Shown: positions 3,113 to 58,561 of the stretch, piece by piece
Position numbering within the stretch: the stretch's first letter is position 1
How the letters are laid out: the number at the start of each line of letters is the position of its first letter
Source of the DNA: Nanobdellota archaeon
GTDB lineage: Archaea > Nanobdellota > Nanobdellia > Woesearchaeales > DATGWN01
Assembly: GCA_051819685.1 (NCBI GenBank)
Contig: JBNJGI010000001.1
Location: forward strand, 18-64,017
DNA: 64,000 nucleotides
Direction: 5' to 3'
Translations under genes and position numbers: made by a program
The notes under the pieces: model-generated
What the model saw: only the letters and a program-made list of their open reading frames with translations
What the model was told of the DNA's origin: nothing
The model's database searches: none

Positions 3113-3187
3113 ACAAAATTAATAACCAAAATCATTTATAAACCTTTTGACTCATTCGATGAATCATGGAATAAAGTTAAGGATTTT

Positions 3188-3304
3188 AAGTGATAATATT
3201 GTCTTGAAGTAATTTTTGAATTTGAAGTAAAACGACTTACAGGAGCGTAAATTCAATCAAATTCACCCTGAGGGACGAACATTAGTTCGCAATATCCCTC
3301 ACTT
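3188..3304 (+). repeat. Intergenic repeat element A copy (about 120 bp, TIR-bounded hairpin element)
   Basis: Matches the A consensus (gagtgatgatattgc...cgacttacaggagcgyaaattcaatcaagttcgccc...gttcgcaatatcactcac) seen in at least 9 copies. Confidence 0.7.
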
Positions 3305-3315
3305 TTTTTATTTTA

Positions 3316-3400
3316 AGTGTCAATTATTTGACAAAATTAGTCTATCCAAATTTCTGGGTTTTCTGCAAGGCAATATAAAAATACAACAAATTTCATGTCG
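3316..3400 (-). repeat. Repeat module B (left half of composite element BC), inverted
   Basis: Reverse complement matches tagtaggcgacataagattgttatatttttatattgccttgcagaaaacccagaaatttgg... found at 26731, 35581 and 44031. Confidence 0.65.
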
Positions 3401-3466
3401 TTAACTAAATAAACAAAGGATTTATAAATATAAATTTGATAAAATCTATTAAAAGAGGGGCTATAT

Positions 3467-11194: not shown

Positions 11195-12310
11195 ATGGCG
11201 AAAAAAATAATAACATCGGAAAGTGTCACAGAAGGTCATCCAGACAAAGTATGTGATAAGATAAGCGATTCATTGCTTGATGCTTACCTTGAACAGGATC
11301 CGGAATCAAGAGTAGCGATAGAAACTTTAGTCAAAGAAAACACAGTCATACTGGCAGGAGAGCTGACAAGCAAAGGAAGTGTAAACATCCAGGAAACAGT
11401 AAAAAAAACATTAAAAGATATCGGATATGACAACGAAGAATTTGGGATGGATCTTAATCTCATCGAAGTAATTTCCAAAATCAACAGGCAAAGCCCTGAT
11501 ATAGCTCAAGGAGTAAATGAAGACGATCATGAACAAGGAGCTGGAGATCAAGGGCTTATGTATGGTTATGCTTCTAACGAAACCGATAACTACATGCCTT
11601 TACCCATTGACTTGGCGCATAAGCTTACAAAAAGATTAAGTGAGGCAAGAAAATCAAAAGAAATAGAAAATTTAGGACCTGATGGAAAAAGTCAAGTATC
11701 TGTAGAATATGAAGATGGAATACCCAAAAGAATTGTAAATGTAGTAATAGCACAGCAACATACAGATGATATAAATGAAGATAAATTAAAACAAGAAATA
11801 AAAGAAAAAATAATAAAACCTGTATGCAATAAATACATAGACGAAAATACAAAATATTATATAAATGGTACAGGAAAATTCATAATAGGAGGACCTGCAG
11901 CTGATGCAGGATTGACAGGAAGAAAAATTATCGTCGATACATATGGTGGAATAGGTCGTCACGGTGGTGGTGCATTTTCAGGAAAAGACCCTTCTAAAGT
12001 TGACAGAAGCGCTGCTTACATGGCAAGACACATAGCTAAAAACATAGTAGCAAAAGGATATGCTGATAGATGTGAACTACAAGTAGCTTATTGCATAGGA
12101 GTTGCAGAACCAATGAGTATTGCGATAAACACTTTCGGAACCTCTAAAATTCCAGGCAAAGATATAGAAAAATGGGTAAGAGATAATTTCAGTCTTAAAC
12201 CGGCAGAAATAATAAAATATCTTGAACTAAAAAAACCAGTATTCTATGAAACAGCCGCTTATGGCCATTTCGGAAGAGAATCTTTCAAATGGGAAAAAAT
12301 AATAGAATAG
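11195..12310 (+). CDS. metK: S-adenosylmethionine synthetase, bacterial/eukaryotic-type (MetK)
   Basis: MAKKIITSESVTEGHPDKVCDKISD, GGGAFSGKDPSKVDRSAAY; TATA-like tattttataaaaag about 25 bp upstream of the ATG at 11195. Confidence 0.9.
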   Translation: MAKKIITSESVTEGHPDKVCDKISDSLLDAYLEQDPESRVAIETLVKENTVILAGELTSKGSVNIQETVKKTLKDIGYDNEEFGMDLNLIEVISKINRQSPDIAQGVNEDDHEQGAGDQGLMYGYASNETDNYMPLPIDLAHKLTKRLSEARKSKEIENLGPDGKSQVSVEYEDGIPKRIVNVVIAQQHTDDINEDKLKQEIKEKIIKPVCNKYIDENTKYYINGTGKFIIGGPAADAGLTGRKIIVDTYGGIGRHGGGAFSGKDPSKVDRSAAYMARHIAKNIVAKGYADRCELQVAYCIGVAEPMSIAINTFGTSKIPGKDIEKWVRDNFSLKPAEIIKYLELKKPVFYETAAYGHFGRESFKWEKIIE

Positions 12311-12324
12311 GCACAATCAAAAAA

Positions 12325-12449
12325 GTGAGTGATATTGCGAACAAATGTTCGTTCCTCCGGGCGAACTTGATTGAATTTACGCTCCTGTAAGTCGTTTTAC
12401 TCCTTACCGCAAATTCAAAAATTACTTCAAGGCAATATCATCACTCATT
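12325..12449 (-). repeat. Repeat element A, most complete (canonical) copy
   Basis: 125 bp between convergent metK and nucleotidyltransferase genes; terminal inverted repeats gtgagtgatattgc / gcaatatcatcactca; internal complementarity (ttgaatttgcg / cgtaaattcaa; gtaag / cttac). Confidence 0.75.
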
Positions 12450-12497
12450 TTATTGCATGTGCCATAGAATAAAAAAATACATAAAAAAGCAAAGTTA

Positions 12498-14524: not shown

Positions 14525-14581
14525 AAAAAAGTCTTTTTCATGGATTTTAAAAATTTTACTATAAAATTAGTATATTATCAC

Positions 14582-14662
14582 CGACATAAAATTTTTGTAT
14601 TGCCTTACAGCAATTTTTAATTATTCTGCGCCATATAAAATACTTTTATTTATGTTACCAAC
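14582..14662 (+). promoter_or_regulatory. Degenerate BC promoter-like module upstream of the pilin-like operon
   Basis: acataaaatttttgtattgccttacagcaa ... ttattctgcgccatataaaatacttttatttatgtt matches B and C modules (ccatataaaat TATA-like). Confidence 0.5.
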
Positions 14663-14736
14663 CACTAAAAAAAAACATTTATAAATACAAAGAGAGAAAA
14701 AAGTATATTGAATATAACTTTGCGAGGTGAAAATAA

Positions 14737-26653: not shown

Positions 26654-26730
26654 ATTAATTTATGATAATGTCTTTTCTTTTAAATAATTTGTTATACATA
26701 ACTGTTAAAATACTTCTTATAAATTAAATA

Positions 26731-26815
26731 TAGTAGGCGACATAAGATTGTTATATTTTTATATTGCCTTGCAGAAAACCCAGAAATTTGGCTAGACAAA
26801 TTCTGTCAAATATTG
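26731..26815 (+). repeat. Repeat module B
   Basis: tagtaggcgacataagattgttatatttttatattgccttgcagaaaacccagaaatttggctagacaaattctgtcaaatatt. Confidence 0.7.
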
Positions 26816-26826
26816 AAACTTAAAAT

Positions 26827-27114
26827 AAAATGAGTGATGATATTGCTTCGAAGTAGTTTTTTAATTTGCGGTAAGGAGTGAAACGACTTACAGGAGCGCA
26901 AATTCAATCAAGTTCGCCCGGACAAAATAATTTGCCTTTACAAATTGACTTGTTCGGGGGGTTTTATACCCTTTTACTTTTATTAAACTTGTTTAAGGCT
27001 AGGAACAAAGTGACTATACCGCACTAAAAGTTTCTACTTGTTGAAACCGCCGAAAGGTTTTCCTTGACAGCGTGCCGGAACAGTTTCACGAATATTTGTT
27101 CGCAACATCACTCA
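26827..27114 (+). mobile_element. Repeat element A copy interrupted by a nested ~157-bp GC-richer insertion (26922..27078)
   Basis: A left arm to gttcgcccgg, then unrelated segment ending gcgtgccgg, then A right arm aacag...tttgttcgcaacatcactcac. Confidence 0.6.
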
Positions 27115-27120
27115 CTTTTA

Positions 27121-27211
27121 TAGATGTGCTCAAATTTCTTAATAGTTAAACCATTAGTGTTTAATTATCCTGCGCCATATAAAATATACTTTATTTATGT
27201 CGTCTACTAAT
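27121..27211 (+). promoter_or_regulatory. Repeat module C (right half of BC): palindromic gttaaacc-N-gtttaat site + ccatataaaat TATA-like box, about 100 bp upstream of the 27313 gene
   Basis: Near-identical to 37796..37885 and reverse copy 43958..44030. Confidence 0.6.
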
Positions 27212-27312
27212 ATTCCTTAAATAGTCGTTGACATAGATAAAGTATAACACTCTTATATCGTTGACTAAAAAATCATTTTATTTAAAAATAATAAAAACTT
27301 CCCTATTTCAAA

Positions 27313-28071: not shown

Positions 28072-28126
28072 ACAATCCTAATCTAATACATCATCTATTA
28101 TTTTTAATTTCTTTAATCAACACATA

Positions 28127-28247
28127 AAATAAGGATAATATTTCCTTGAAATAATATTTTAATTTTGGGTAAGAAATGGAATTATTTACAGGAGCGCGAA
28201 TTTAATCAAGTTAACATAGAACAAACATTTTTAACAATATCACTCAC
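28127..28247 (+). repeat. Repeat element A copy (degenerate left arm)
   Basis: ...ttacaggagcgcgaatttaatcaagtt...aacaatatcactcac. Confidence 0.6.
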
Positions 28248-28305
28248 TTTTTTGTATAAGTTTTAAATCAAAGTATTTATAAATAAGCTAAAACGACACT
28301 TTTAT

Positions 28306-31199: not shown

Positions 31200-31244
31200 A
31201 TTATTAAGCAAAAAATATTTCTATTTATAAAGCTTTTTGTTATT

Positions 31245-31300
31245 TAGTCTGAACATTAGATTTTTTTATTTTTATATTACCTTGCAGAAAATTCATAAAT
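31245..31300 (+). repeat. Partial B module
   Basis: tttttatattaccttgcagaaaattcataaatttgc. Confidence 0.4.
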
Positions 31301-31437
31301 TTGCTTTTATATTAAAAAGCAGTTTAATTATAAATCTAATTAAAGTTAAATTTCTGTTAATTCCAATTATCATTTATAAATATATTATCTTAAAAACAAA
31401 AAACATAAAAATAACTTATTAACTTTAGCAAATTACA

Positions 31438-32531: not shown

Positions 32532-32694
32532 TTTTAAACCTCTAAGTTCTTAAACAATCGTGGAATATTTAATTTATAAATTTTTCTCTAAATCGGGCTT
32601 TGCGTATCATAAAAATCCCATATTATCGGTAATATTTTTCTTTGATTTTTAAAATTTGAATTTACAATAAAAAATGCCTTTAATTGACATATAA

Positions 32695-32790
32695 ACTAAA
32701 ATAAGTGATAATAATACCTTGAAAGCGCAAATTTAATCAAGTTCATAAGAAGAAGAATTGAAAAATTGTTTGCAATATGACTCATTTTTT
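32695..32790 (+). repeat. Repeat element A, internally deleted copy
   Basis: aagtgataataatacc...gcgcaaatttaatcaagttc...tgcaatatgactca. Confidence 0.55.
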
Positions 32791-32830
32791 TAGTGTTACT
32801 CTGAATAAAACTTTTATAGATTAAAAATAT

Positions 32831-35537: not shown

Positions 35538-35580
35538 AAAATATTATATGCTTTCGTTTTTTAAAAAACTATTCTTTTAA

Positions 35581-35665
35581 TAGTAGGCGACATAAGATTG
35601 TTATATTTTTATATTGCCTTGCAGAAAAACCCGAAATTTGACTAGACTAATTCTGTCAAATATTA
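35581..35665 (+). repeat. Repeat module B
   Basis: tagtaggcgacataagattgttatatttttatattgccttgcagaaaaacccgaaatttgactagactaattctgtcaaatatt. Confidence 0.7.
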
Positions 35666-35676
35666 ACAATTATAAC

Positions 35677-35796
35677 AAAATGAGTAATGATATTGTTATT
35701 TGAGTTATGAGTTTACAGTTATAAGTCTTAAAATCAAAACTAATTTACTCAATCGCCCTGAGGGATTAATATTAGTTCGCAATATCACTAATTTTT
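35677..35796 (+). repeat. Repeat element A, diverged interior copy
   Basis: aaaatgagtaatgatattg ... ctgagggattaatattagttcgcaatatcacta; followed by start of C (gtagatgcgctc). Confidence 0.55.
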
Positions 35797-36320
35797 GTAG
35801 ATGCGCTCTTTTGATAATCTGGTGTAGATAGTATTTCTTCAAATCTGTTCAAAGGGATTTTTCTTTCAAGATTTGCAGGTAAAGAGGTCACTATTATTTT
35901 TCTATCATCAGATTCTTTTTCTGCTAAAATCAAAGGCAAACCTAAATCAAAATTATCCCTTATACCTTTAAAAGACATAGTTTTATGTGTAATATAATGC
36001 CATGGCATGAATTTTTTTGAAAAATTTTGGACTAATTCATCAAAACTTCGATAACCATCATTCCCATTAATTAACTCATCATATAAATTAGATAAATTAC
36101 TTCCTGGAAAAGGTTCATCATTAGGAGTTACAATTGATTTAATTCTAATTTCAGGATCACCTGGTCTTGAAATCCTTTCATCAAGGTAAGATATCATCTT
36201 TTTTCCGCTCAATAAAAGACTTAATTTCGTTTTATGGAAATCATATAAACTACTTTCATATAAATCAGCATTTTGTAGAAAAGTATCGACGGATTCGTTT
36301 AAAAGTATCTTATTATCCAT
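35772..36320 (-). CDS. Hypothetical protein (182 aa)
   Basis: ORF; 3' end overlaps repeat. Confidence 0.35.
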   Translation of the reverse strand: MDNKILLNESVDTFLQNADLYESSLYDFHKTKLSLLLSGKKMISYLDERISRPGDPEIRIKSIVTPNDEPFPGSNLSNLYDELINGNDGYRSFDELVQNFSKKFMPWHYITHKTMSFKGIRDNFDLGLPLILAEKESDDRKIIVTSLPANLERKIPLNRFEEILSTPDYQKSASTKISDIAN

Positions 36321-36375
36321 TCAAAGTAAAAAAATAAATTAATTTAAAAAGTTTTTTATATTTATCACTGTATAG

Positions 36376-37317
36376 TTAAATATTTTTATAAGATTTTATT
36401 GTAGAATCTACCATATCTCTTATATTCTTTTTTGGAGACCAACCCAATATATCCTTAGCTTTTTTACTTGAAGCTAATATCTTAGCAGGATCCCCTTCCC
36501 TTCTGCTTTCAATTTTCAATTTAAAATCTTTTCCTGAAATTTCCTTGAAATATTTGACAAGCTCAAAAACTGAAAAACCTTCTTCACTACCAAGATTAAG
36601 AATACCATTATAACTATTTTCCAAAGCAAGTATATGTGCATCTACCAAATCAGAAATATGTATGTAATCTCTTATACAACTACCATCTTTAGTAGGATAA
36701 TCATTACCAAAGACACAAAACTCCTCTTTCTTACCTTCAATAGTTTCCATAATGATAGGAAATACATTCTTTGCATCAGGATCCTGATAACCTAACTCAT
36801 CACCTGCAACATTGAAATACCTTAAACAACAAAAGCTTAACTTATGAATCTTATTATACCAATCTATGATTTTTTCACATTCAAGCTTAGTAAAACCATA
36901 AAAATTAATCGGATTAGTTAAAGAATCTTCATCAAGTACATTATCGCTATCACCATAAACTCCTGCTGAAGAAGAGAATATAAACCTTTTAACATTAAAA
37001 TCAACACACATATTAAGAAGATTTAAAGTCCCTTTTATATTATCCGAATACTTCACTGCATTTTTCATACTCTCTCCTGCTGCTTTATAAGCTGCAAAAT
37101 GTATAACAGCATCAAAATCTTCATAATTAAAAACATCCCTTAAACCAGATTCATCACAAAGGTCTGCATGAAAAAAAACTGCCCTTTTATCTATTAAATC
37201 TTTATTGCCTTTATACAGATTATCAATAACAAACACCTTATAACCTTTATCTGCCAATCTTTTCACAGCAACAGATCCTATATATCCTGCTCCTCCCGTA
37301 ACAAGTATCTTTTCCAT
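36376..37317 (-). CDS. galE: NAD-dependent epimerase/dehydratase (UDP-glucose 4-epimerase-like)
   Basis: MEKILVTGGAGYIGS...YxxxK region. Confidence 0.75.
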   Translation of the reverse strand: MEKILVTGGAGYIGSVAVKRLADKGYKVFVIDNLYKGNKDLIDKRAVFFHADLCDESGLRDVFNYEDFDAVIHFAAYKAAGESMKNAVKYSDNIKGTLNLLNMCVDFNVKRFIFSSSAGVYGDSDNVLDEDSLTNPINFYGFTKLECEKIIDWYNKIHKLSFCCLRYFNVAGDELGYQDPDAKNVFPIIMETIEGKKEEFCVFGNDYPTKDGSCIRDYIHISDLVDAHILALENSYNGILNLGSEEGFSVFELVKYFKEISGKDFKLKIESRREGDPAKILASSKKAKDILGWSPKKNIRDMVDSTIKSYKNI

Positions 37318-37331
37318 TATGTAATTTTTAA

Positions 37332-37604
37332 TCAAAGTTTATTGATCTTTTCTAAAAGAGCTTTGAATATAATCGCTGAGGATCTATTCCCTGCTTTTAT
37401 TCCTTTAATTCCATCCCTTATTTCATAAGCATCTTTTTTCTTTATATCTTTTATTGAATTCAAAATATCATTAATTTTTTTCTCTATAATAATTATTTCT
37501 TCGACTTCTTTTTTAGATGGTAATTGATCCGAATTTAATTTTGATACAAAATGATCTAACTTATTGAATTCTGTTTTCAATTCATTTTTCAATTTATTTT
37601 CCAT
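37332..37604 (-). CDS. Small coiled-coil protein (90 aa)
   Basis: ORF, K/E-rich heptads. Confidence 0.35.
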   Translation of the reverse strand: MENKLKNELKTEFNKLDHFVSKLNSDQLPSKKEVEEIIIIEKKINDILNSIKDIKKKDAYEIRDGIKGIKAGNRSSAIIFKALLEKINKL

Positions 37605-37664
37605 TTTATATAAAATAATTTAAAACTGACTTATAAATATTTTGAACATTTGAAACATAAAAAT

Positions 37665-37790
37665 AAATAAGGAAGGATATTACTTTGAAATAAATTTTGG
37701 GTTTGCGATAAAAAATGGAACTAGTTACAATAGTGCAAATTCAATCAAGTTCACCCGGAGGAACTAGCATTTGTTCGCAACATCACTCAT
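37665..37790 (+). repeat. Repeat element A copy
   Basis: ...agtgcaaattcaatcaagttcacccggaggaactagcatttgttcgcaacatcactca. Confidence 0.6.
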
Positions 37791-37795
37791 TTTTA

Positions 37796-37885
37796 TAGAT
37801 GTGCTTAAATTTCGTAATAGTTAAACCATTATTGTTTAATTATCCTGCGCCATATAAAATATACTTTATTTATGTTGTCTACTAT
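37796..37885 (+). promoter_or_regulatory. Repeat module C (palindrome gttaaacc-N-gtttaat + ccatataaaat TATA-like) upstream of tRNA-Leu
   Basis: Near-identical to 27121..27211. Confidence 0.6.
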
Positions 37886-37927: not shown

Positions 37928-38057
37928 GATTTGCGGGGGTAGCAAAGTCTGGTCAAATGCGCAGGACTCAAGTAATTGAGTGATGAGCCGGAAGGCGATG
38001 ATTTTGCATTTGAGCAATCCTGTCTCTTAGTGAGTTCAAGGGTTCGAATCCCTTCCC
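37928..38057 (+). tRNA. tRNA-Leu (anticodon CAA), type II long variable arm, 44-nt intron in anticodon loop (about 37968..38011)
   Basis: Acceptor gcggggg/cccccgc, U8, D-arm, anticodon stem cagga/tcctg with loop c-t-CAA-g, T-arm aaggg-ttcgaat-ccctt, discriminator a; no encoded CCA. Confidence 0.8.
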
Positions 38058-38262
38058 CCGCATTTTATTCTAAAATGCTTTGTCAGGTATTCGAACGTCT
38101 TCAGAATCAAAGATTCTTCGAGTTACTCGTAAACTCGTAACAATCCCTTCCCCCGCATGAACGAAGTGAAGAGGTGGAAGGTCAGGGAAAATACTTTTTC
38201 CCGCTACCTTCCCCCGCATTTTATTCTAAAATGCTTTGTCAGGTATTCGAACGTCTTCAGAA
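38046..38262 (+). repeat. Tandem duplication (unit about 156 bp) of the tRNA-Leu 3' end and downstream 45 bp; a third partial tRNA-3' copy lies at 38137..38152
   Basis: ccttcccccgcattttattctaaaatgctttgtcaggtattcgaacgtcttcagaatcaaa occurs at 38046..38106 and 38202..38262. Confidence 0.75.
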
Positions 38263-38274
38263 TCAAAATAACTT

Positions 38275-38982
38275 CTATTTCTCAATTTCAAGTATTGCAT
38301 TAATCTCTTTATCTACAATAGCACACCCGTTAAGCTTCAAAGCCCATAAAATACCTTCAAGTATACCTTTATCGAAATCTTTCCTTTTTTGGAAATTAGA
38401 TAATTTATAGAAATCAAGAAGACCTTTTTCATATGCAATAGTTGCAAGCTCGCATGATCTTATCGCTCTGATAAAACCAACCTTTTTCTTTAAATTTTCA
38501 ATCATTTCAGTTTTTACATCTATCTTAGTATGAAGTTTTCTCTCAAGTCTTTTCTTTATCTTCAAAGGTGCTTCAATAAGATATCTAGTATTCCTTTCAT
38601 CAATAACAAGAGTCTTAATATCATATTTAATACAAGTAGCAATAGCTTCTGCTTCAGCGTAATGTACTATCTTTACAGCATTCCCTTTATTGAAAAAACA
38701 CTTATTAGCAATATCCAGTATTTCATTTGCTTTTTTAGAAATATCTTCATCATCTTTTTCGTCCACTATCTTTAAAATACCATTAGCAATATAAGGCATT
38801 ATCCTTATACTTTCAAACTTATATTTCTTAGTTTTCATAGGACGATCTATTATCTCTTTACTTACACTTTTAGGTATAATGAATTCACCATTGAAATTTT
38901 TCTTCAATGCTTCTAGAAGCCATTGGGAACCGCTCATAGTAAGACTTATAATAGGACCAGAATCAAAAACAATACCTCTCAT
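38275..38982 (-). CDS. PIN-like nuclease domain protein (putative toxin-like)
   Basis: N-terminal IVFDSGPIISL, acidic residues in HYAEAEAIA / LVIDERN. Confidence 0.4.
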   Translation of the reverse strand: MRGIVFDSGPIISLTMSGSQWLLEALKKNFNGEFIIPKSVSKEIIDRPMKTKKYKFESIRIMPYIANGILKIVDEKDDEDISKKANEILDIANKCFFNKGNAVKIVHYAEAEAIATCIKYDIKTLVIDERNTRYLIEAPLKIKKRLERKLHTKIDVKTEMIENLKKKVGFIRAIRSCELATIAYEKGLLDFYKLSNFQKRKDFDKGILEGILWALKLNGCAIVDKEINAILEIEK

Positions 38983-39542: not shown

Positions 39543-39600
39543 TAACTCAACCTCTTAACATTACTTTATGAACTGGTATTTAAAAATTTATTTATACATT

Positions 39601-39655
39601 AGTCAACGACCTAAGATTGTTATATTTTCATATTGCTTTGAAGCAATATTTTAAC
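39601..39655 (+). repeat. Partial B module upstream of the aIF2-gamma gene
   Basis: agtcaacgacctaagattgttatattttcatattgctttgaagcaa. Confidence 0.45.
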
Positions 39656-39740
39656 ATTTACTTCTAGGCAATATATTCACTAACTTTTTTTCATGCCAAG
39701 TTGTCCAAATATTTATAAATAGACTTTTTTTCGCATATAT

Positions 39741-40997: not shown

Positions 40998-41429
40998 TCA
41001 TTCTTTTTTAAGCATAATTTTAGGCCCGTCCATTGTATAATTCTTATCGTTCTTTAAATTCTTATAATTGAACTTAACTACAGCAGAAGGAGAATCCACA
41101 CTTATATCCAGTTTATAAGTTTCTCCCGGAGTCAAATATTTATTCAATGAAAAAGTATTTTCATCAATTTCTATGGATGTAATATTTATGTTATAAGGAA
41201 GATTATTCTGTATAATCGCTTCAAGTTTTTCTCCATCCCATTTAATTTCCTTAAGTGCTATATCAGAAGATGCCCAGATACTCCTTGATTGTGATATTTT
41301 TTTATCATCAGCAAGACTTGTAAGATTGACAATTGTACCTGTAAGAATTAAAAGAAAAGCTATGACTACTGATATAATAATTATAAACTCCACAGTTGTT
41401 TGCGTTTTTTTTCTAAAAAACATCTTCAA
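40998..41429 (-). CDS. Pilin-like protein (class III signal peptide)
   Basis: MKMFFRKKTQTTVEFIIIISVVIAFLLIL. Confidence 0.65.
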   Translation of the reverse strand: MKMFFRKKTQTTVEFIIIISVVIAFLLILTGTIVNLTSLADDKKISQSRSIWASSDIALKEIKWDGEKLEAIIQNNLPYNINITSIEIDENTFSLNKYLTPGETYKLDISVDSPSAVVKFNYKNLKNDKNYTMDGPKIMLKKE

Positions 41430-42502
41430 GAAAAGTCATTAAGGTCTTTTACAGTAGTATCATAATAAATAAGAGTGGTTGTCCCTTCAATACCGCCTTT
41501 CTGTTTTTTTACTTTAATAAAATTATTTTCTTGCAGTTTATCCACTCTTCTTTGAAAAGTCTTATAACTTATATTACCTCCTCTTTCAGTATAAATATTA
41601 TACAAATCACCTATTCTTGCAGGAGAATTATCTTTAATTATATCTAATATACCTTTTTCATCCCCTTTCAGATCATCTACTTTTTTTGTCTTAAAATCAT
41701 GAAGCTTATTAATAGCCTTTTCAACATCTTTATCTTCCACTTTTTTTCTGCTTTCTTCCTCTGCAGAAAAGGTTGACTCTTTCAACAAGAAAAGTCCTGT
41801 CCTTATATCCTTCAGTTCATAAGTCTTATTGTAAATTTTTTCTAAAGTTTTTTCTTCCCAAACTCCTGGTTTAAAAGCGAGGTCTTTTCTTTCTTTGATA
41901 ATTTCTTTAGTCTCATTTTTGCTATACGGAAGAAACTCTATTTTTTCAGGTACAAACCGTGACATAATTCTTTTATCTAATGAAGAAATCCAACTCTTAT
42001 AATTAGTTATACATATAAGACTTTTTCTATATATTTCTTCGAGTATAGAATACAAAAAACCCTGATCTTCAGCTTTATCTATTTCATCAAAAACAAAAAC
42101 TGCTGATTTTTTATTAACAATACCTTTGATAACAGCAAATAATTCTTCAGTCCTTTTATTATGAGTGAATTTATAATCTAGCTGATAACAAATATCAAGA
42201 AAAATTTTATAACTCGTATTTTTCTGCCAACAATTAACATAAATCGGCAGAATATCATCTGTCTGGTCCTCCATTTCAGAAAGAATGTGTTTAGTTGCTA
42301 CAGTCTTACCAACTCCTGGAAGACCAAATATTATAGCATTCTTTCCATTCATATCTCCGAACAAAGGTTTTATACATCTTGCGATAGAAAATTGAGATTT
42401 TTCTCTAAAAGGAATAAGTTTAGGTATATAGTCATAGCTTAATGCTACCTCATTTTTGAAAAGAGTTTCGTCACTTGATAAAATTTCATCGAATACGCCC
42501 AT
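41426..42502 (-). CDS. cdc6: Orc1/Cdc6 replication initiator (AAA+ + winged helix)
   Basis: YIPKLIPFREKSQF...NAIIFGLPGVGKT (Walker A), VFVFDEIDK (Walker B). Confidence 0.8.
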   Translation of the reverse strand: MGVFDEILSSDETLFKNEVALSYDYIPKLIPFREKSQFSIARCIKPLFGDMNGKNAIIFGLPGVGKTVATKHILSEMEDQTDDILPIYVNCWQKNTSYKIFLDICYQLDYKFTHNKRTEELFAVIKGIVNKKSAVFVFDEIDKAEDQGFLYSILEEIYRKSLICITNYKSWISSLDKRIMSRFVPEKIEFLPYSKNETKEIIKERKDLAFKPGVWEEKTLEKIYNKTYELKDIRTGLFLLKESTFSAEEESRKKVEDKDVEKAINKLHDFKTKKVDDLKGDEKGILDIIKDNSPARIGDLYNIYTERGGNISYKTFQRRVDKLQENNFIKVKKQKGGIEGTTTLIYYDTTVKDLNDFS

Positions 42503-42662
42503 AAAATTGATATAATTAATGTATTTTTAAAGTTTGTTACAAGGCGGCAAATACATTTAAATGACTTAAGATATTCTCTTAAAATAAATTGCTATAAAGT
42601 TTTAAATAAAATGGCATATATTTATTTATATTTTTAAGTATTAAATATAGATAATCCAACAA

Positions 42663-43889
42663 TCATATCTTTTTTATCTTTACTTTATCTATTTTATGAT
42701 GCCGTATCTTTTGAACACTCATTGCTAGCCTATTCTTCTTATCTTTTATCTCTTGACCTATTTCAGGAAAATCATTCAATTTATATTGTATATAACCACC
42801 TAAAGTAGAATAATGACCATTTTCAGGAATTTTTATTCTCAAAGCTTCATTTAAATCATTAATATTAACATCTCCATCGAAAAGATAAGAATCCTTACTT
42901 ATTCTTTTAAAAAAATACTCCTCATTATCGCTTTCATCAGTAATCTCTCCCACTATCTCTTCAAGAATATCTTCCATAGTAACAATACCGGCAGTCCCTC
43001 CAAATTCGTCAAGTACTACGGCCATTTGCATTCTATATTTTTGAAACTCTGAAAAAAGCTCCTGTATAATTTTCTCTCCAGAAACGAAAATGATTTTTTT
43101 ATATATATCTTTAGCTTTCTTTTTACTACTATTTCCAGAAGGAATTAAATCACGTATATGGAGATATCCTATAATATTATCTATATCCTTACTATAAACA
43201 GGAACTCTTGAATAACAAGTATTGCTTAACTTTTTTCTTATATCTTTTACTATCTCATCTTCCTGTATAGAAAACACATCAGTTCTTGGAGTCATAATTT
43301 CCTTAACTTTAATATCATCGAACTGGAAAACGCTTTTCATCATCTGTTTTTGTTTCTTGTGAAGCACTTCTTTTTCAGCTCCCATTTCAATCATAGTTTC
43401 AATTTCACTTTCAGTGACAATATCGGGATTTTTATTATCCATCTTTAAAAAATTTGAAAGTAATTCAAAAAGAAAAATGACAGGTAGCAGAAGATATTCT
43501 AAAAATAATATATATTTAGAAGCGATTAAGCTAATCTTGGTCGAATGTTTAGCAAAAGAAGTCTTCGGAAGAATTTCTCCGAAAGTCAGGATGAGCAAAG
43601 TCATTATACCTGTAGCAACACCAATACCTGCGCTACCGAAAGCTTCAGTAAAAACTACTGTAGCAATTGATGAAGAAGCGACATTAACAAGATTGTTCCC
43701 TATAAGAATAGTTATAATAAGTCTTCTTTGATTATTCTTAAGCTTCAATAAAAACTCGCTGTTTTTTTGCTTTTGATTATAAAGAGATCTTGCTTTTACA
43801 TGGCTTAATGTAAGAAAGGCAGTCTCAAGTCCTGAAAAAACCCCTGAGAGGACCAAAAGAACGATAAGCATTAATAAAAATTCTATCAT
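42663..43889 (-). CDS. CNNM/CorC-HlyC family transporter (DUF21 TM + CBS pair + CorC_HlyC)
   Basis: MIEFLLMLIVLLVLSGVFSGLETAFLTLSHVKARSL. Confidence 0.75.
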   Translation of the reverse strand: MIEFLLMLIVLLVLSGVFSGLETAFLTLSHVKARSLYNQKQKNSEFLLKLKNNQRRLIITILIGNNLVNVASSSIATVVFTEAFGSAGIGVATGIMTLLILTFGEILPKTSFAKHSTKISLIASKYILFLEYLLLPVIFLFELLSNFLKMDNKNPDIVTESEIETMIEMGAEKEVLHKKQKQMMKSVFQFDDIKVKEIMTPRTDVFSIQEDEIVKDIRKKLSNTCYSRVPVYSKDIDNIIGYLHIRDLIPSGNSSKKKAKDIYKKIIFVSGEKIIQELFSEFQKYRMQMAVVLDEFGGTAGIVTMEDILEEIVGEITDESDNEEYFFKRISKDSYLFDGDVNINDLNEALRIKIPENGHYSTLGGYIQYKLNDFPEIGQEIKDKKNRLAMSVQKIRHHKIDKVKIKKI

Positions 43890-43957
43890 ATTGAGTCACT
43901 TATATTTTAACAATTACTAAAGACTAACTAAGATATTTATAAATTTTGCTTATTTTT

Positions 43958-44098
43958 AATAAAGTATATTTTATATGGCGCAGAATAATTAAACACTTAT
44001 GGTTTAACTATTACGAAATTTGATAGAATTAGTCTAGCCAAATTTCTGTTTTTTCTGCAAGGCAATATAAAAATATAACAATCTTATGTCGCCTACTA
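43958..44098 (-). repeat. Contiguous composite BC element (reverse orientation); C part carries the palindrome and TATA-like box facing the CNNM gene
   Basis: Reverse complement reads tagtaggcgacataagattgttatatttttatattgccttgcagaaaaaacagaaatttggctagactaattctatcaaatttcgtaatagttaaaccataagtgtttaattattctgcgccatataaaatatactt. Confidence 0.7.
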
Positions 44099-44114
44099 TT
44101 TTAGAACATATAAC

Positions 44115-44243
44115 AAAATGAGTGATGATATTGCCTTGAAGTAAAGTTTGAATTTGCGGCAATAAGTGAAACTACTTACAGGAGCGCAAATTCAATCTTA
44201 TTCGTCCGGAGACACGAAAGATTATTCGCAATATCACTCGCTT
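44115..44243 (+). repeat. Repeat element A copy
   Basis: aaaatgagtgatgatattgccttgaag...cttacaggagcgcaaattcaatc...ttattcgcaatatcactcgcttttt. Confidence 0.7.
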
Positions 44244-44374
44244 TTTGTAAGTATACCAGAAACTGGTAAAATATATATTCAATTTGAATTAACTTATAAA
44301 AAACTACGCAATTTCATTAAACAATAATAACAAATATTTATAAATGAATCTGTTCCTTTAAAAACAGGGGTTTA

Positions 44375-47300
44375 ATGGTAGATAAAAAAGAAGGTGAAAA
44401 GCAGTCTTTTGAGGAACTAAATGAAAAATTTAATAATCTCAAAAAATTAGCTTCAGAATTCGGTGTAGGAACAGATAAAAGCGATAAAGAAAAAAATGAT
44501 AATATAGTAAATCTTTCTGTAGATAATTCTAAACCCTATGAAAAAGAAAACGATCTCAAGTTAGTCGAAAATACAGCTGAATCTTATAATGAAGTTGAAG
44601 TATATGATAGTATTTCAGAAAACAAGGATAAATTTACGCTTAACAAAGAAAATTTATCTGACGATTCCATCAACAAATTCAATGATGGGATAATAAAGAT
44701 TAAAGATGAGATAAAAAAATCTCTTGGTGGATCAATATCGCCTGATATTAAAGAAGATACACCGGAAACTAACACTAATGAAGAAGAATCTTTTGAAAAC
44801 AAACAATCTCAAAAAGAAATAATAGAAAAAGAACCAGTTGAGCAGAATAATTCAGATAAAGCTGAAGAAATCCAAGAAGAAAAAAAGATAGAAGAAGAAA
44901 ACAATAAACTTCAGGAAAAAATAAATAAAAAACAACATCTTAAGAACAAATACATCCAGTTAGAGGAAGATATCAAAGATGCGAAAAACATCCATAAATT
45001 AAGAAAAGAAATAGAAAAAAAGAATAAAAAAATAGATGAGAAACTTTATTATCTCGAATCTAAAGAAAGTGAATTAGCTGAAAAATCTACACAAATCTAT
45101 GAAAAAGAGAAAGAACTTGAAGAAACAAGAAAAAAATTATTCATGAAAGAGCAGGAAGTAGGTGAACTTATAGAAAAAAATGTAGAAAAAGTCAAGGAGT
45201 TCGATGATAAATCTACTGAAATCAGTGATAAATCAAAAGATATAGCTCAAAGGGAAAATGAATTATTGGTGCAAGAAAAAAAGCTAATGAAATTACAATC
45301 AGAACTTAATGAAGAACAGATCAAATTAAAAAATAATTCATTAAAACAAGAAAACAGCTGGAAAAAAGCAAAAAGTAAAATAGATGAGATGGAAAGATAT
45401 GTGACTGATAAAGAAAAAGAGATCAAATCAAGATTAAAACACCTCAATGATAAAGAAAAAAATCTCAAAAAGAAAGAAGAAAAAGTAAACAAAACAGAAA
45501 AAGGTATACATGAACACCTAAACCATATCAGTAAAAGGGAAAAGGAAGTTGATAAGAAAGAAAAAGAACTTCATAAAAAAGAAATAGGAATGAATGACCA
45601 AGAAGAAAAACTATCTCAGAAAAAACTCGAGCTTGAAGAAACATTAAGACATAATAATAACATAAAAAAAGAGCTTGAAGATAAAAGAAAAGAAATTGAT
45701 GAAATTGAAAAAGATAAGCAGAAAGCACTTGAAGAATATAACAATTACCTTAAAGAAAAAGATGCTCTTGAACAAGAAAAAAACAGACTAAAAAAACTTG
45801 AAGAGGATATTCTTGAAAACGAAGAAAATGTAAGAAAAAATGCTAATGTATTGAAAAAACGTGAAAATGAACTGGAAATAAGAGAAAGGAAAGCCGAAGA
45901 TCTGATAGAACATAATAATTCATTAAAACTTAAATTAGAAGAAGAAGAATCTAAGAAAAAAGATGTAAAGAAACTACACAAAGAGTTAAAAGATAAGAAA
46001 ATAGAAATTGAAAAAGAAAAAAATAATTATGAAACATTAAGTGATGAACTCAAACAGAAAATTGAAATAAATAAACAAGAAAAAAATAACCTTGAAAAAG
46101 AAAAGTCAGAAATTAAAAATAATAAAAACAATCTTGAGAAAAAAGAGAAAGATCTTACTAAAAGGGATGCTCAAATACAAGTAAAAGAGAATGATATCAA
46201 ACAAAAAGAGAAAGAAATAAATGTTTATCTAAAACAAAAGAAAGAGTTTGAAAAAGAACTTGAAAATATAGAAACCAAAAAAACTGAATTAAGAGATAAA
46301 GAAGCAGAAATACAAGGAAAAATCGATAAAAATACTGCAATGCTTGATGAAATAGATCAAAAAAGTCAGCAAATTGAAAAAGAAAAGTCAGAAATTTCAG
46401 AAAAAGAAAATGATATTGAAAGTAAAGAAAAAGAATTAAAAACATTATTGGAAGAAGAAAAGAAAAGTAAAACAAGAACCTCTCAAATAGAATCTGAAAA
46501 GAAAAAAGAGCTTAAAGAACTACAATCACTAAAAAAAGATCAAGGAAAAACCAATAAGGAACTTGAAAACAAAATAAATAAGGTTGAAAAAGAAAGAACT
46601 CTTCTTCAAGAAAAACAAGAATCGCTCAAAACAAAGGAATCTGAAATAAAATCCAAACTTGAAGAAATAAAGACCGAAAAGAAAGAAAAAGAAAAACTAC
46701 TTGCTAATCTTGACAAGAAAGAAAAATCTCTTGCTAAAGAAGAAGTCCGTATAGATAAAAAATCAAGTGAACTTGAAGAAAAATCCAAAGAAGATGAAGC
46801 AAGAAAATCTGACATCAAAAATCTTATATCTGAAAAGAAATCTGTTCTGGAAGATCTTGATAAAAAAGAAAAAAACATCTCCAAACTTGAAGAAGAATAC
46901 AATAAAAAACTTTCATCCCTCACAAAAAAAGAAGAATCGCTCAAAACAAAGGAATCTGAAATAAAATCCAAACTTGAAGAAATAAAGACCGAAAAGAAAG
47001 AAAAAGAAAAACTACTTGCTAATCTTGACAAGAAAGAAAAATCTCTTGCTAAAGAAGAAGTCCGTATAGATAAAAAATCAAGTGAACTTGAAGAAAGAAG
47101 TGCTTCAGTCATTGAAGATGAAAAAAATCTTAAAACCAAAAATCAGAATTATCATAAAAAGATGAAAGAACTAGAAAAAAAATCTGAAGAATTGAATATT
47201 CACGAATCTGATCTGAAAGAAAGAGAAATGCAAAATAGGAAACTAATTGATGAAATAAAAGAAGAAAAAACCCAGGTTGAAGGTATCAAACAAAAAATCA

Positions 47301-47935
47301 CTGACATCAATAAAAATATTGAAGATAAAGACATTAATCTAAAAAATAAAGAAAAGGAACTTAATTCACGTGAAGAAAGAGTTAAATCTACTGAAGAAGA
47401 TATCTATAATAGAAAAGATCAAATCGAAAAGAAAGAAAAAGAACTTTTCAACGCTAAAAAACTTGTAGAGGATATGAAGGAACAAATAAAAGAAGAATAT
47501 TTAAAAATAAACCAGACGAAAGATTTGCTTGATGATAAACTAAAAATGACAGAAGAAAAAAGACAGTTATATGAAAAAGAATGGGAAGAATTTCAAGAAA
47601 AATCCAAAGAAACAGAAAACACAAAAACTCAGTTCCTTGAAGCTAAGGAAAAATTGGAAGAGATAAAATCCAGATCAGAAAAAGAATTAGATAATCTTTT
47701 AACGGAAAAGAACAAATATATACGTGAAAACAAAAAAATGCGTCAGATGAATCATGAAATGAAAAAGAAAAAAGAAATCTTGGATGTTTCAAAACATAAG
47801 ATAGCTGGAAAAATAAAAGAACTCACAAAAAAAGAAAAAGCTTTACAATCAAAAGAATCTATATATAATAAAAAAGAAGAATTTTTAAATAGATATGAAA
47901 AGGAATTGGTCGAGAAGGAAAAGAGGTTAATATGA
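44375..47935 (+). CDS. Giant (1186 aa) K/E-rich coiled-coil protein
   Basis: Continuous heptad-like EKEKELKK low complexity; no TM or signal peptide; TATA-like atttataaatg + cagggg upstream. Confidence 0.7.
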   Translation: MVDKKEGEKQSFEELNEKFNNLKKLASEFGVGTDKSDKEKNDNIVNLSVDNSKPYEKENDLKLVENTAESYNEVEVYDSISENKDKFTLNKENLSDDSINKFNDGIIKIKDEIKKSLGGSISPDIKEDTPETNTNEEESFENKQSQKEIIEKEPVEQNNSDKAEEIQEEKKIEEENNKLQEKINKKQHLKNKYIQLEEDIKDAKNIHKLRKEIEKKNKKIDEKLYYLESKESELAEKSTQIYEKEKELEETRKKLFMKEQEVGELIEKNVEKVKEFDDKSTEISDKSKDIAQRENELLVQEKKLMKLQSELNEEQIKLKNNSLKQENSWKKAKSKIDEMERYVTDKEKEIKSRLKHLNDKEKNLKKKEEKVNKTEKGIHEHLNHISKREKEVDKKEKELHKKEIGMNDQEEKLSQKKLELEETLRHNNNIKKELEDKRKEIDEIEKDKQKALEEYNNYLKEKDALEQEKNRLKKLEEDILENEENVRKNANVLKKRENELEIRERKAEDLIEHNNSLKLKLEEEESKKKDVKKLHKELKDKKIEIEKEKNNYETLSDELKQKIEINKQEKNNLEKEKSEIKNNKNNLEKKEKDLTKRDAQIQVKENDIKQKEKEINVYLKQKKEFEKELENIETKKTELRDKEAEIQGKIDKNTAMLDEIDQKSQQIEKEKSEISEKENDIESKEKELKTLLEEEKKSKTRTSQIESEKKKELKELQSLKKDQGKTNKELENKINKVEKERTLLQEKQESLKTKESEIKSKLEEIKTEKKEKEKLLANLDKKEKSLAKEEVRIDKKSSELEEKSKEDEARKSDIKNLISEKKSVLEDLDKKEKNISKLEEEYNKKLSSLTKKEESLKTKESEIKSKLEEIKTEKKEKEKLLANLDKKEKSLAKEEVRIDKKSSELEERSASVIEDEKNLKTKNQNYHKKMKELEKKSEELNIHESDLKEREMQNRKLIDEIKEEKTQVEGIKQKITDINKNIEDKDINLKNKEKELNSREERVKSTEEDIYNRKDQIEKKEKELFNAKKLVEDMKEQIKEEYLKINQTKDLLDDKLKMTEEKRQLYEKEWEEFQEKSKETENTKTQFLEAKEKLEEIKSRSEKELDNLLTEKNKYIRENKKMRQMNHEMKKKKEILDVSKHKIAGKIKELTKKEKALQSKESIYNKKEEFLNRYEKELVEKEKRLI

Positions 47936-58020: not shown

Positions 58021-58377
58021 TCAGAAAAGTTAATTAAAATAATTAAATCTTTCAATTATGAAAATCATAAAAACAAAGGCAGAACAATATGCAAAAAAGC
58101 AATATAAAAAAATTATTCTTTCCATCAATATTCATATCTAGAAAAAGTTCTACACATAGCTTTACAAATAGCAAAAAAATAAAAAATGCAATGTTAGGTC
58201 ACTCAACAAAATATAGAATCCAATTTAAAGAAAAAAATTCTAAAGAGGGCAAAATATTATATGGTGCAGATAAATAAATATTTCTTACTACAAATGAAAC
58301 AATTGAAAAATACTTACCTTTACTTTATTTTCAAGAAACAAAGGAATTAGTAAGAAAAAACCTCTGGAACATACAAT

Positions 58378-58504
58378 AAAATAATTGATGATATTGCCTC
58401 GAATTAATATTTGAATTTGTGGTAAGGAGTAGAATTATTTAAAGGAGCGTAATTCAATCAAGTTCGCTAGGATAAAATATTAGTCCGCAATATCACTCAC
58501 TTTT
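58378..58504 (+). repeat. Repeat element A copy
   Basis: aaaataattgatgatattgcctcgaatt...aaaggagcgtaattcaatcaagttcgc...agtccgcaatatcactcactttt. Confidence 0.7.
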
Positions 58505-58561
58505 ATGAATGCGCCAAAACTCCGATAAATTTAAATCTATTAAAAAATTACACTTTTTCTT

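Follow-up and report, generated by a model that had tools for sequence, protein, structure and literature searches.

A truncated copy of a probable MITE-like repeat upstream of a CNNM/CorC gene in a DPANN archaeon

We analyzed a 64,000-nucleotide stretch of archaeal DNA, here called the window. At about 44 kb, between a CNNM/CorC gene on the minus strand and a gene for a 1186-aa protein on the plus strand, there is a copy of a dispersed, non-coding repeat that we call BC after its two modules, B (~85 nt) and C (~75 nt). This copy, BC44, contains no ORF of 50 aa or more (43949-44098), and a copy of a second repeat, A, lies next to it (Table 1). A first-pass annotation of the window had already described a repeated element of B and C parts at this site, and we could confirm it on the minus strand by profile search and by repeat finding, which gave inverted matches at 91-95% identity to 26727-26818, 35579-35661, 27130-27195 and 37807-37870. 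Each motif that the annotation had quoted occurs here in reverse complement, TTTTTATATTGCC at 44061-44073 and CCATATAAAAT at 43968-43978, as does the quoted palindrome. The annotation had also given the element its own inverted termini. That is correct for the B side of this copy, but the C-side repeat is absent from its expected site (about 43944-43958), where we find the unrelated sequence TTTTGCTTATTTTTA, and the quoted pair of ends belongs to the copy at 26731-27209.

Table 1. Features of the 44-kb locus and copies of the BC and A repeats in the window.
Feature	Position	Strand	Remarks
CNNM/CorC gene	42663-43889	-	
TATA box TTTATAAATA of the CNNM/CorC gene	43934-43943	-	54 nt upstream of the ATG, outside BC44
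BC44	43949-44098	-	nhmmer profile positions 1-150 of 154, E = 3.6e-47
Arms of BC44	B ~44018-44098, C ~43949-44023	-	Contiguous
Palindrome TAATTAAAC-N7-GTTTAACTA	43986-44010		Within the C arm of BC44
B-side 15-nt terminal repeat TAGTAGGCGACATAA	44084-44098	-	Exact match; the only terminus of BC44
A44	44103-44257	+	Adjoins the B terminus of BC44; nhmmer E = 1e-42
TATA box TTTATAAATG	44337-44346	+	Serves the 1186-aa gene starting at 44375; outside BC
A3 then B3	A 3170-3319, B 3326-3403	A +, B -	
A12	12310-12463 (12302-12471 with flanking repeats)	-	Solo 154-bp A in a convergent 3'-3' intergenic region
BC14	14568-14672	+	Short, diverged BC derivative without the central part; nhmmer E = 3.3e-05 (C part)
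BAC26	26731-27209	+	Sole BC copy with both terminal repeats
Parts of BAC26	B 26731-26814, nested A 26815-27129, C 27130-27209	+	
A28	28113-28262	+	Solo A between the methyltransferase and LysRS genes; nhmmer E = 7.7e-32
B31	31243-31304	+	Degenerate solo B end, TAGTC... terminus subfamily; nhmmer E = 2.6e-05
A32	32689-32794	+	Internally deleted A; nhmmer E = 1.8e-08 plus a weak 5' piece
B35 and degenerate A35	B 35581-35664, A 35665-35806	+	Without C
A37 and C37	A 37652-37804, C 37805-37884	+	Terminal repeat with 2 mismatches; without B
B39	39598-39695	+	Degenerate B end, TAGTCAACGAC subfamily, fused to an A-end fragment
A58	58366-58515	+	Solo A upstream of an MFS transporter gene; nhmmer E = 5.3e-40
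17-mer in B	26761, 35611, 44052(-), 3360(-)		
17-mer in A	44128, 12422(-), 3196		

The window is AT-rich, with ~30% GC across its 64 kb. Judging from its proteins it is from a DPANN (Nanobdellota/Woesearchaeota-type) archaeon, since the CNNM/CorC protein has 100% identity to a hemolysin family protein of a Nanobdellota MAG and the next relatives are found in Woesearchaeota MAGs at 55-76% identity. The genes are housekeeping genes (MetK, LysRS, aIF2-gamma, Orc1/Cdc6, ribosomal proteins, PGK and Alba), and a two-component pair and ABC transporters are also encoded. Among the ~55 ORFs of the window none has a transposase domain, and an autonomous element with matching ends was likewise not found there. 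The 1186-aa gene (44375-47935) encodes a lysine/glutamate-rich protein without a Pfam match and contains a 171-nt segment present twice at 99% identity, 315 nt apart (46611-47096), which looks like a recent in-frame internal duplication. We also noted that the cumulative GC skew has its minimum at about 43.6-44.0 kb, 1.5 kb from orc1/cdc6 (interval 41426-44375), and that the genes switch from the minus to the plus strand at about the same place. These two features could mark a replication origin, although the skew there tracks the coding strand and the two are inseparable. The idea that BC or A serve as origin-recognition boxes near orc1/cdc6 (41426-42502) was rejected, because the copies are spread window-wide and GC skew follows the coding strand.

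BC-derived sequence occurs at eight loci in the 64-kb window, at 3.3, 14.6, 26.7/27.1, 31.2, 35.6, 37.8, 39.6 and 44.0 kb, and an nhmmer profile search of the window returned nine BC-derived segments with E values from 1e-47 to 3e-5. The element measures about 155 bp, not the ~165 bp of the first-pass annotation, and is bounded by 15-nt terminal inverted repeats, TAGTAGGCGACATAA. This 15-mer has eight matches at up to three mismatches when 1.06 are expected, and none of 100 shuffles reached eight. In BAC26, the copy at 26.7 kb, the two termini (26731-26745 and 27195-27209) agree in inverted orientation at 14 of 15 positions. Copies are ~95% identical overall, and the 47 nt at the B end are identical in three of them. 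A second subfamily of termini, TAGTCAACGAC, exists as well, and the copies form a decay series of full, truncated, internally deleted and solo-end forms. We could not demonstrate a target-site duplication for BC: 12% of randomly chosen position pairs do as well as the strongest candidate, AATAT (5/5), and a "TA" duplication within the TAGTAG...CTACTA of BC would be indistinguishable from the repeat itself. Just beyond the C end of BAC26, at 27222-27268, we observed a mini-element of ~47 bp with two diverged termini (TAGTCGTTGACATAGA ... TATATCGTTGACTAA).

The second repeat, A, is 154 bp long and non-coding, with segments at 3.2, 12.4, 26.8, 28.1, 32.7, 35.7, 37.7, 44.1 and 58.4 kb; nhmmer finds about ten segments in the 64-kb window (E from 2e-50 to 2e-8). 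Its ends are imperfect inverted repeats of ~30 nt (GGCACAT..AATAAAATGAGTGATGATATTGC; GGCACA...TGTGCC). The solo copy A12 has the 8-bp sequence ATAGAATA immediately outside both termini as a perfect direct repeat (12302-12309 and 12464-12471; 8/8 at offset 0,0), a score reached by only 0.7% of random position pairs even with a slack of +-4 nt. This duplication is a signature of transposition.

Repeat finding and alignments bear out that A is found nested in or adjoining B and C in both relative orientations, as the first-pass annotation had proposed. In BAC26, A interrupts BC at ...GTCAAAT|..., and the copy at 44 kb shows the same site uninterrupted. The B-A junction of BAC26 recurs at 35.6 kb (B35/A35) and its A-C junction at 37.8 kb (A37/C37) and on L054, a contig from outside the window; therefore the B-A-C composite itself has been copied or recombined. 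At 3.3 kb the orientation of A relative to B is the inverse of that in BAC26. The same annotation had regarded BC as a reusable module that moves or recombines, and this idea is supported by the dispersed copies with terminal repeats, the identical 47-nt B ends and the nesting with A. We made two further observations on the composites. The A copy in BAC26 carries a unique, more GC-rich insert of ~165 nt (about 26925-27090), giving three levels of nesting; it is perhaps flanked by (G)CC(C)GGA and has neither a second copy in the window nor a match in Rfam. In 35581-37884, the B-A pair at 35.6 kb and the A-C pair at 37.7 kb, with their A copies co-oriented, bracket three genes (an unknown 182-aa ORF, an NAD-dependent epimerase and a 90-aa ORF), an arrangement that resembles a gene block between the two halves of a B-A-C composite. 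We rejected a single composite element running from B35 to C37 with three genes, as the flanking TTTTA (5/5) is not significant.

Beside the C copy at 37.8 kb is a tRNA-Leu gene (37933-38062; 47.2 bits in Rfam) that ARAGORN missed and that has a 47-nt insertion at the anticodon loop, an intron. By eye, the intron has GTGATGA and GATGA motifs resembling C/D-box elements. The 3' end of the tRNA (CCTTCCCCCGCA) recurs at about 38147 and 38207 (interval 38049-38280) and forms part of a 74-nt direct repeat (38051-38124 and 38207-38280, 92%). These 3'-end repeats resemble attachment sites left behind by an integration event at the tRNA gene.

In size, which for MITEs is below about 600 bp, in being non-coding, and in their terminal inverted repeats, copy number and nesting, BC and A have the properties of MITEs, and one copy of A (A12) also has the target duplication. 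We believe that the copy at 44 kb is probably a truncated, now immobile copy of BC, and that BC is a MITE-like non-autonomous DNA transposon that occurs alongside a second MITE family, A. A transposase, encoded in another part of the genome or since lost, would have spread both families, and B-A-C composites would subsequently have been propagated or recombined. Copies would persist only where the compact genome tolerates them, that is, just upstream of TATA boxes and mostly between divergent promoters, and such survival beside promoters would make the elements look like promoter modules.

The lack of a demonstrable target-site duplication for BC and of a transposase among the ORFs of the window would also suit an intergenic repeat spread by recombination or gene conversion, with a function in host DNA or RNA (like REP/BIME or ERIC), that is not a transposon relic. 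Mosaic copies (B alone, C alone, B-A and A-C) are what recombination predicts, and the B end that is identical in three copies points the same way. However, the terminal inverted repeats of BC lie exactly at the element ends, its companion A has a textbook 8-bp target-site duplication, structural covariation was not found, and the decay series is typical of neutral relics. We consider this explanation unlikely.

The first-pass annotation had interpreted BC as a promoter cassette that imposes a regulon on its neighbors. The 8-mers most enriched upstream of the window's genes are pieces of TTTATAAATA, which is matched 20-59 nt upstream of about 16 start codons with an A-rich, BRE-like stretch before it. 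We built a promoter matrix from these 16 host sites (A-rich BRE plus TTTATAAATA). The host promoters score 11-20 bits, while no B or C copy contains, on either strand, a site above 2.1 bits, a score that 0.2-0.8% of the positions in the window also attain. Judged by the standard of this genome, the boxes of BC are poor promoters. In addition, the arms of B and C align further past their first 15 nt (TATA-TTTTATAT-GC-GCAG), so the two "TATA-like boxes" may most simply be read as arms of one longer imperfect terminal repeat; this alignment is statistically insecure, with 99/1000 shuffles scoring equally.

Each of the 11 BC termini is directed at the start of the neighboring gene, and a TATA-like box, 20-70 nt ahead of the start codon, intervenes in every case. 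Compared with TTTATAAATA, this box has zero or one mismatch at seven of the 11 termini, two at three and three at one, and at 9/11 it is only 1-17 nt from the terminus. Because the genes' own boxes lie outside BC and the boxes of BC score low, the flanking genes appear not to need BC as a promoter. The C part does face a downstream gene, as had been claimed, but this would follow if a genome so compact retains the elements nowhere except upstream of promoters.

Six of the eight BC loci are in divergent intergenic regions, versus roughly 27% of element-free intergenic DNA (binomial estimate, p about 0.006). Unlike BC, the solo copies of A are in a convergent 3'-3' region (A12) or in tandem regions (A28, A32 and A58). 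The simplest reading of the BC placement is survivorship, with back-to-back promoter spacers as the only neutral targets, because the operons of this genome overlap and convergent gaps are only a few bp. A regulatory role upstream of the genes, or insertion targeted to promoters, would also account for it.

The palindrome in the C arm had been taken for an operator-like site, and we do not find this borne out. Four C copies have it, with identical arms and a variable spacer, but copies are alike at ~95% overall and the palindrome is conserved only to that extent. Inverted repeats of this kind (9-nt arms, at most one mismatch, 3-10 nt spacer) start once per ~440 bp in the window, so that 0.35 are expected per 155 bp and the quality of this one is at chance level.

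These results bear on whether BC is a promoter or regulatory cassette whose outward-facing TATA boxes and common operator join unrelated flanking genes in a regulon. Sites of archaeal activators sit just upstream of the TATA box, which is where most of the termini are, and promoters carried by MITEs are known elsewhere, for example in Correia elements. The invariant palindrome arms would suit such a cassette, as would a subterminal 17-mer, ATATTGCCTTG[A/C]AG[A/T]AA, that is common to B and A, 31 nt (B) and 26 nt (A) from their termini, and that may be a putative joint protein-binding site or reflect common ancestry. Against this, the internal boxes are far below real promoters in score, most flanking genes retain a canonical TATA at a normal distance, the palindrome is of chance quality, and many copies are truncated or degenerate. 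The flanking genes are also unrelated in function (response regulator, methyltransferase, tRNA-Leu, CNNM, S6e and others). We therefore find the regulon cassette unsupported and its existence improbable.

A variant in which BC, and perhaps A, are MITEs that have been exapted to wire a regulon, with the palindrome (TAgTTAAAC-N7-GTTTAAtTA) or the 17-mer (ATATTGCCTTG[A/C]AG) as the candidate site of a single factor, seems to us very unlikely. If true, exapted elements would bring otherwise unrelated housekeeping genes under joint control in a genome that has very few regulators.

A folds very stably, with equal results for its two strands (z = -5.2 and -5.5). The T-run at its 3' end is the counterpart of an A-run at the opposite inverted end, and Rfam has no match for A, the only hit of the Rfam search being the tRNA-Leu. 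Over ten copies we obtained a covariation term of +1.65, and shuffled controls matched or exceeded the observed covariation measures in 58 to 340 of 500 cases. Because both strands fold equally, covariation is missing and Rfam gives no match, we reject a structured RNA; the behavior of A is therefore that of a MITE, a palindrome at the DNA level, rather than that of an RNA gene. The most improbable explanation of all takes A for a multi-copy gene of a small RNA, B for its promoter and BC for a control region located upstream or downstream of it. The stable fold with a T-run at its end would suit this, as would the changes in stem P2 (several compatible with G-U pairing on the plus strand and, in one copy, L054a, a double change from A-U to G-C) and the outward B box at 44 kb that points into A. 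However, the opposite strand folds equally well, shuffles match the covariation of A, the T-run is the mirror of an A-run, the terminal stem has A-C breaks in several copies, and the orientation of B relative to A is inconsistent.

To look beyond the window we scanned a genome collection with the 15-nt terminus and obtained 115 matches, nearly all of them chance matches in unrelated bacteria, the pattern being too short. One match is genuine, on contig L054 (JBNJGP010000157.1, 4104 bp), on which we find A three times and C once, the latter with its terminus, and which ends inside a copy of A. The C terminus there is ~14 nt from the TATA of a pilin-like gene. L054 is filed under "Candidatus Muiribacteriota", a bacterial phylum. 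Some of its proteins are of archaeal type, RPA and NFACT among them, and the RPA shows 100% identity to a protein, on a 20.7-kb contig, whose second NCBI accession neighbors the numbers of this Nanobdellota MAG. Because of the RPA identity and the adjacent accession number, L054 is most likely a mis-binned piece of the same DPANN population. Scans of metagenomes with the cores of B and A, scans of viral contigs, and a blastn search of the 479-bp composite against plasmids and phages gave no match. Copies of A or BC are also absent from the corresponding loci of relatives at 70-76% protein identity, where the loci are non-syntenic or the contigs are cut. In one such relative (GCA_036681025.1, 70% LysRS identity) we noted a contig, L121, that ends in ...AATTTATAAAGGCGACATATTTTA (2460-2478). 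Here a TATA box precedes AGGCGACATA, a stretch that agrees with the BC terminus over 10 nt. Another Woesearchaeota-type MAG may thus have a related element at this point, where its assembly breaks off.

Our results indicate that a reduced, compact DPANN genome can bear very dense, nested relics of miniature transposons, here roughly 18 segments in 64 kb. What is known of archaeal promoters and transposons is unchanged by this, and a high density of MITEs in a Woesearchaea genome has already been published (PMC11602168). The relics are crowded into narrow spaces just upstream of promoters, where they mimic regulatory modules to a reader who has only the sequence. Such repeats also break metagenome assemblies, as at the end of L054 inside a copy of A, and they can travel with mis-binned contigs.

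Several known systems resemble BC in part. The ERIC/IRU and REP/BIME repeats of enterobacteria are dispersed imperfect palindromes in intergenic DNA with a mosaic, modular makeup, and in being dispersed, intergenic and mosaic BC is like them. REP elements depend on the RAYT (TnpA_REP) transposase and are usually found at gene 3' ends within transcripts, whereas BC is upstream of promoters and has discrete 15-nt terminal repeats. The Correia elements of Neisseria (CREE/NEMIS) are MITE-like inverted-repeat elements of ~100-155 bp near gene starts, with full and internally deleted forms, and BC shares the inverted repeats, the location and both forms. Correia elements have been proposed to affect the expression of their neighbors, and promoter activity and IHF binding have been shown experimentally. 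They are the closest functional analogue of the promoter-cassette idea, but BC lacks the promoter properties: its boxes fail the host-consensus test and its neighbors keep their own TATA. The two also belong to different domains of life and have no sequence similarity.

The closest known systems are the prokaryotic MITEs, including SM1-SM4 of Sulfolobus and the dense MITEs reported for DPANN/Woesearchaea genomes (PMC11602168). In a prokaryotic MITE census, a Woesearchaea genome had one of the highest MITE densities among archaea, 105 per Mb (PMC11602168). BC and A differ from known MITEs in that a cognate transposase or IS family was not found for either in the window, that BC is without a demonstrable target-site duplication, and that neither has a sequence match in the plasmid, phage, viral-contig and metagenome collections. 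Like MITEs, both are ~150 bp, non-coding, AT-rich and multi-copy with terminal inverted repeats, are almost entirely intergenic and mutually nested, and form decay series, and A has an 8-bp target-site duplication.
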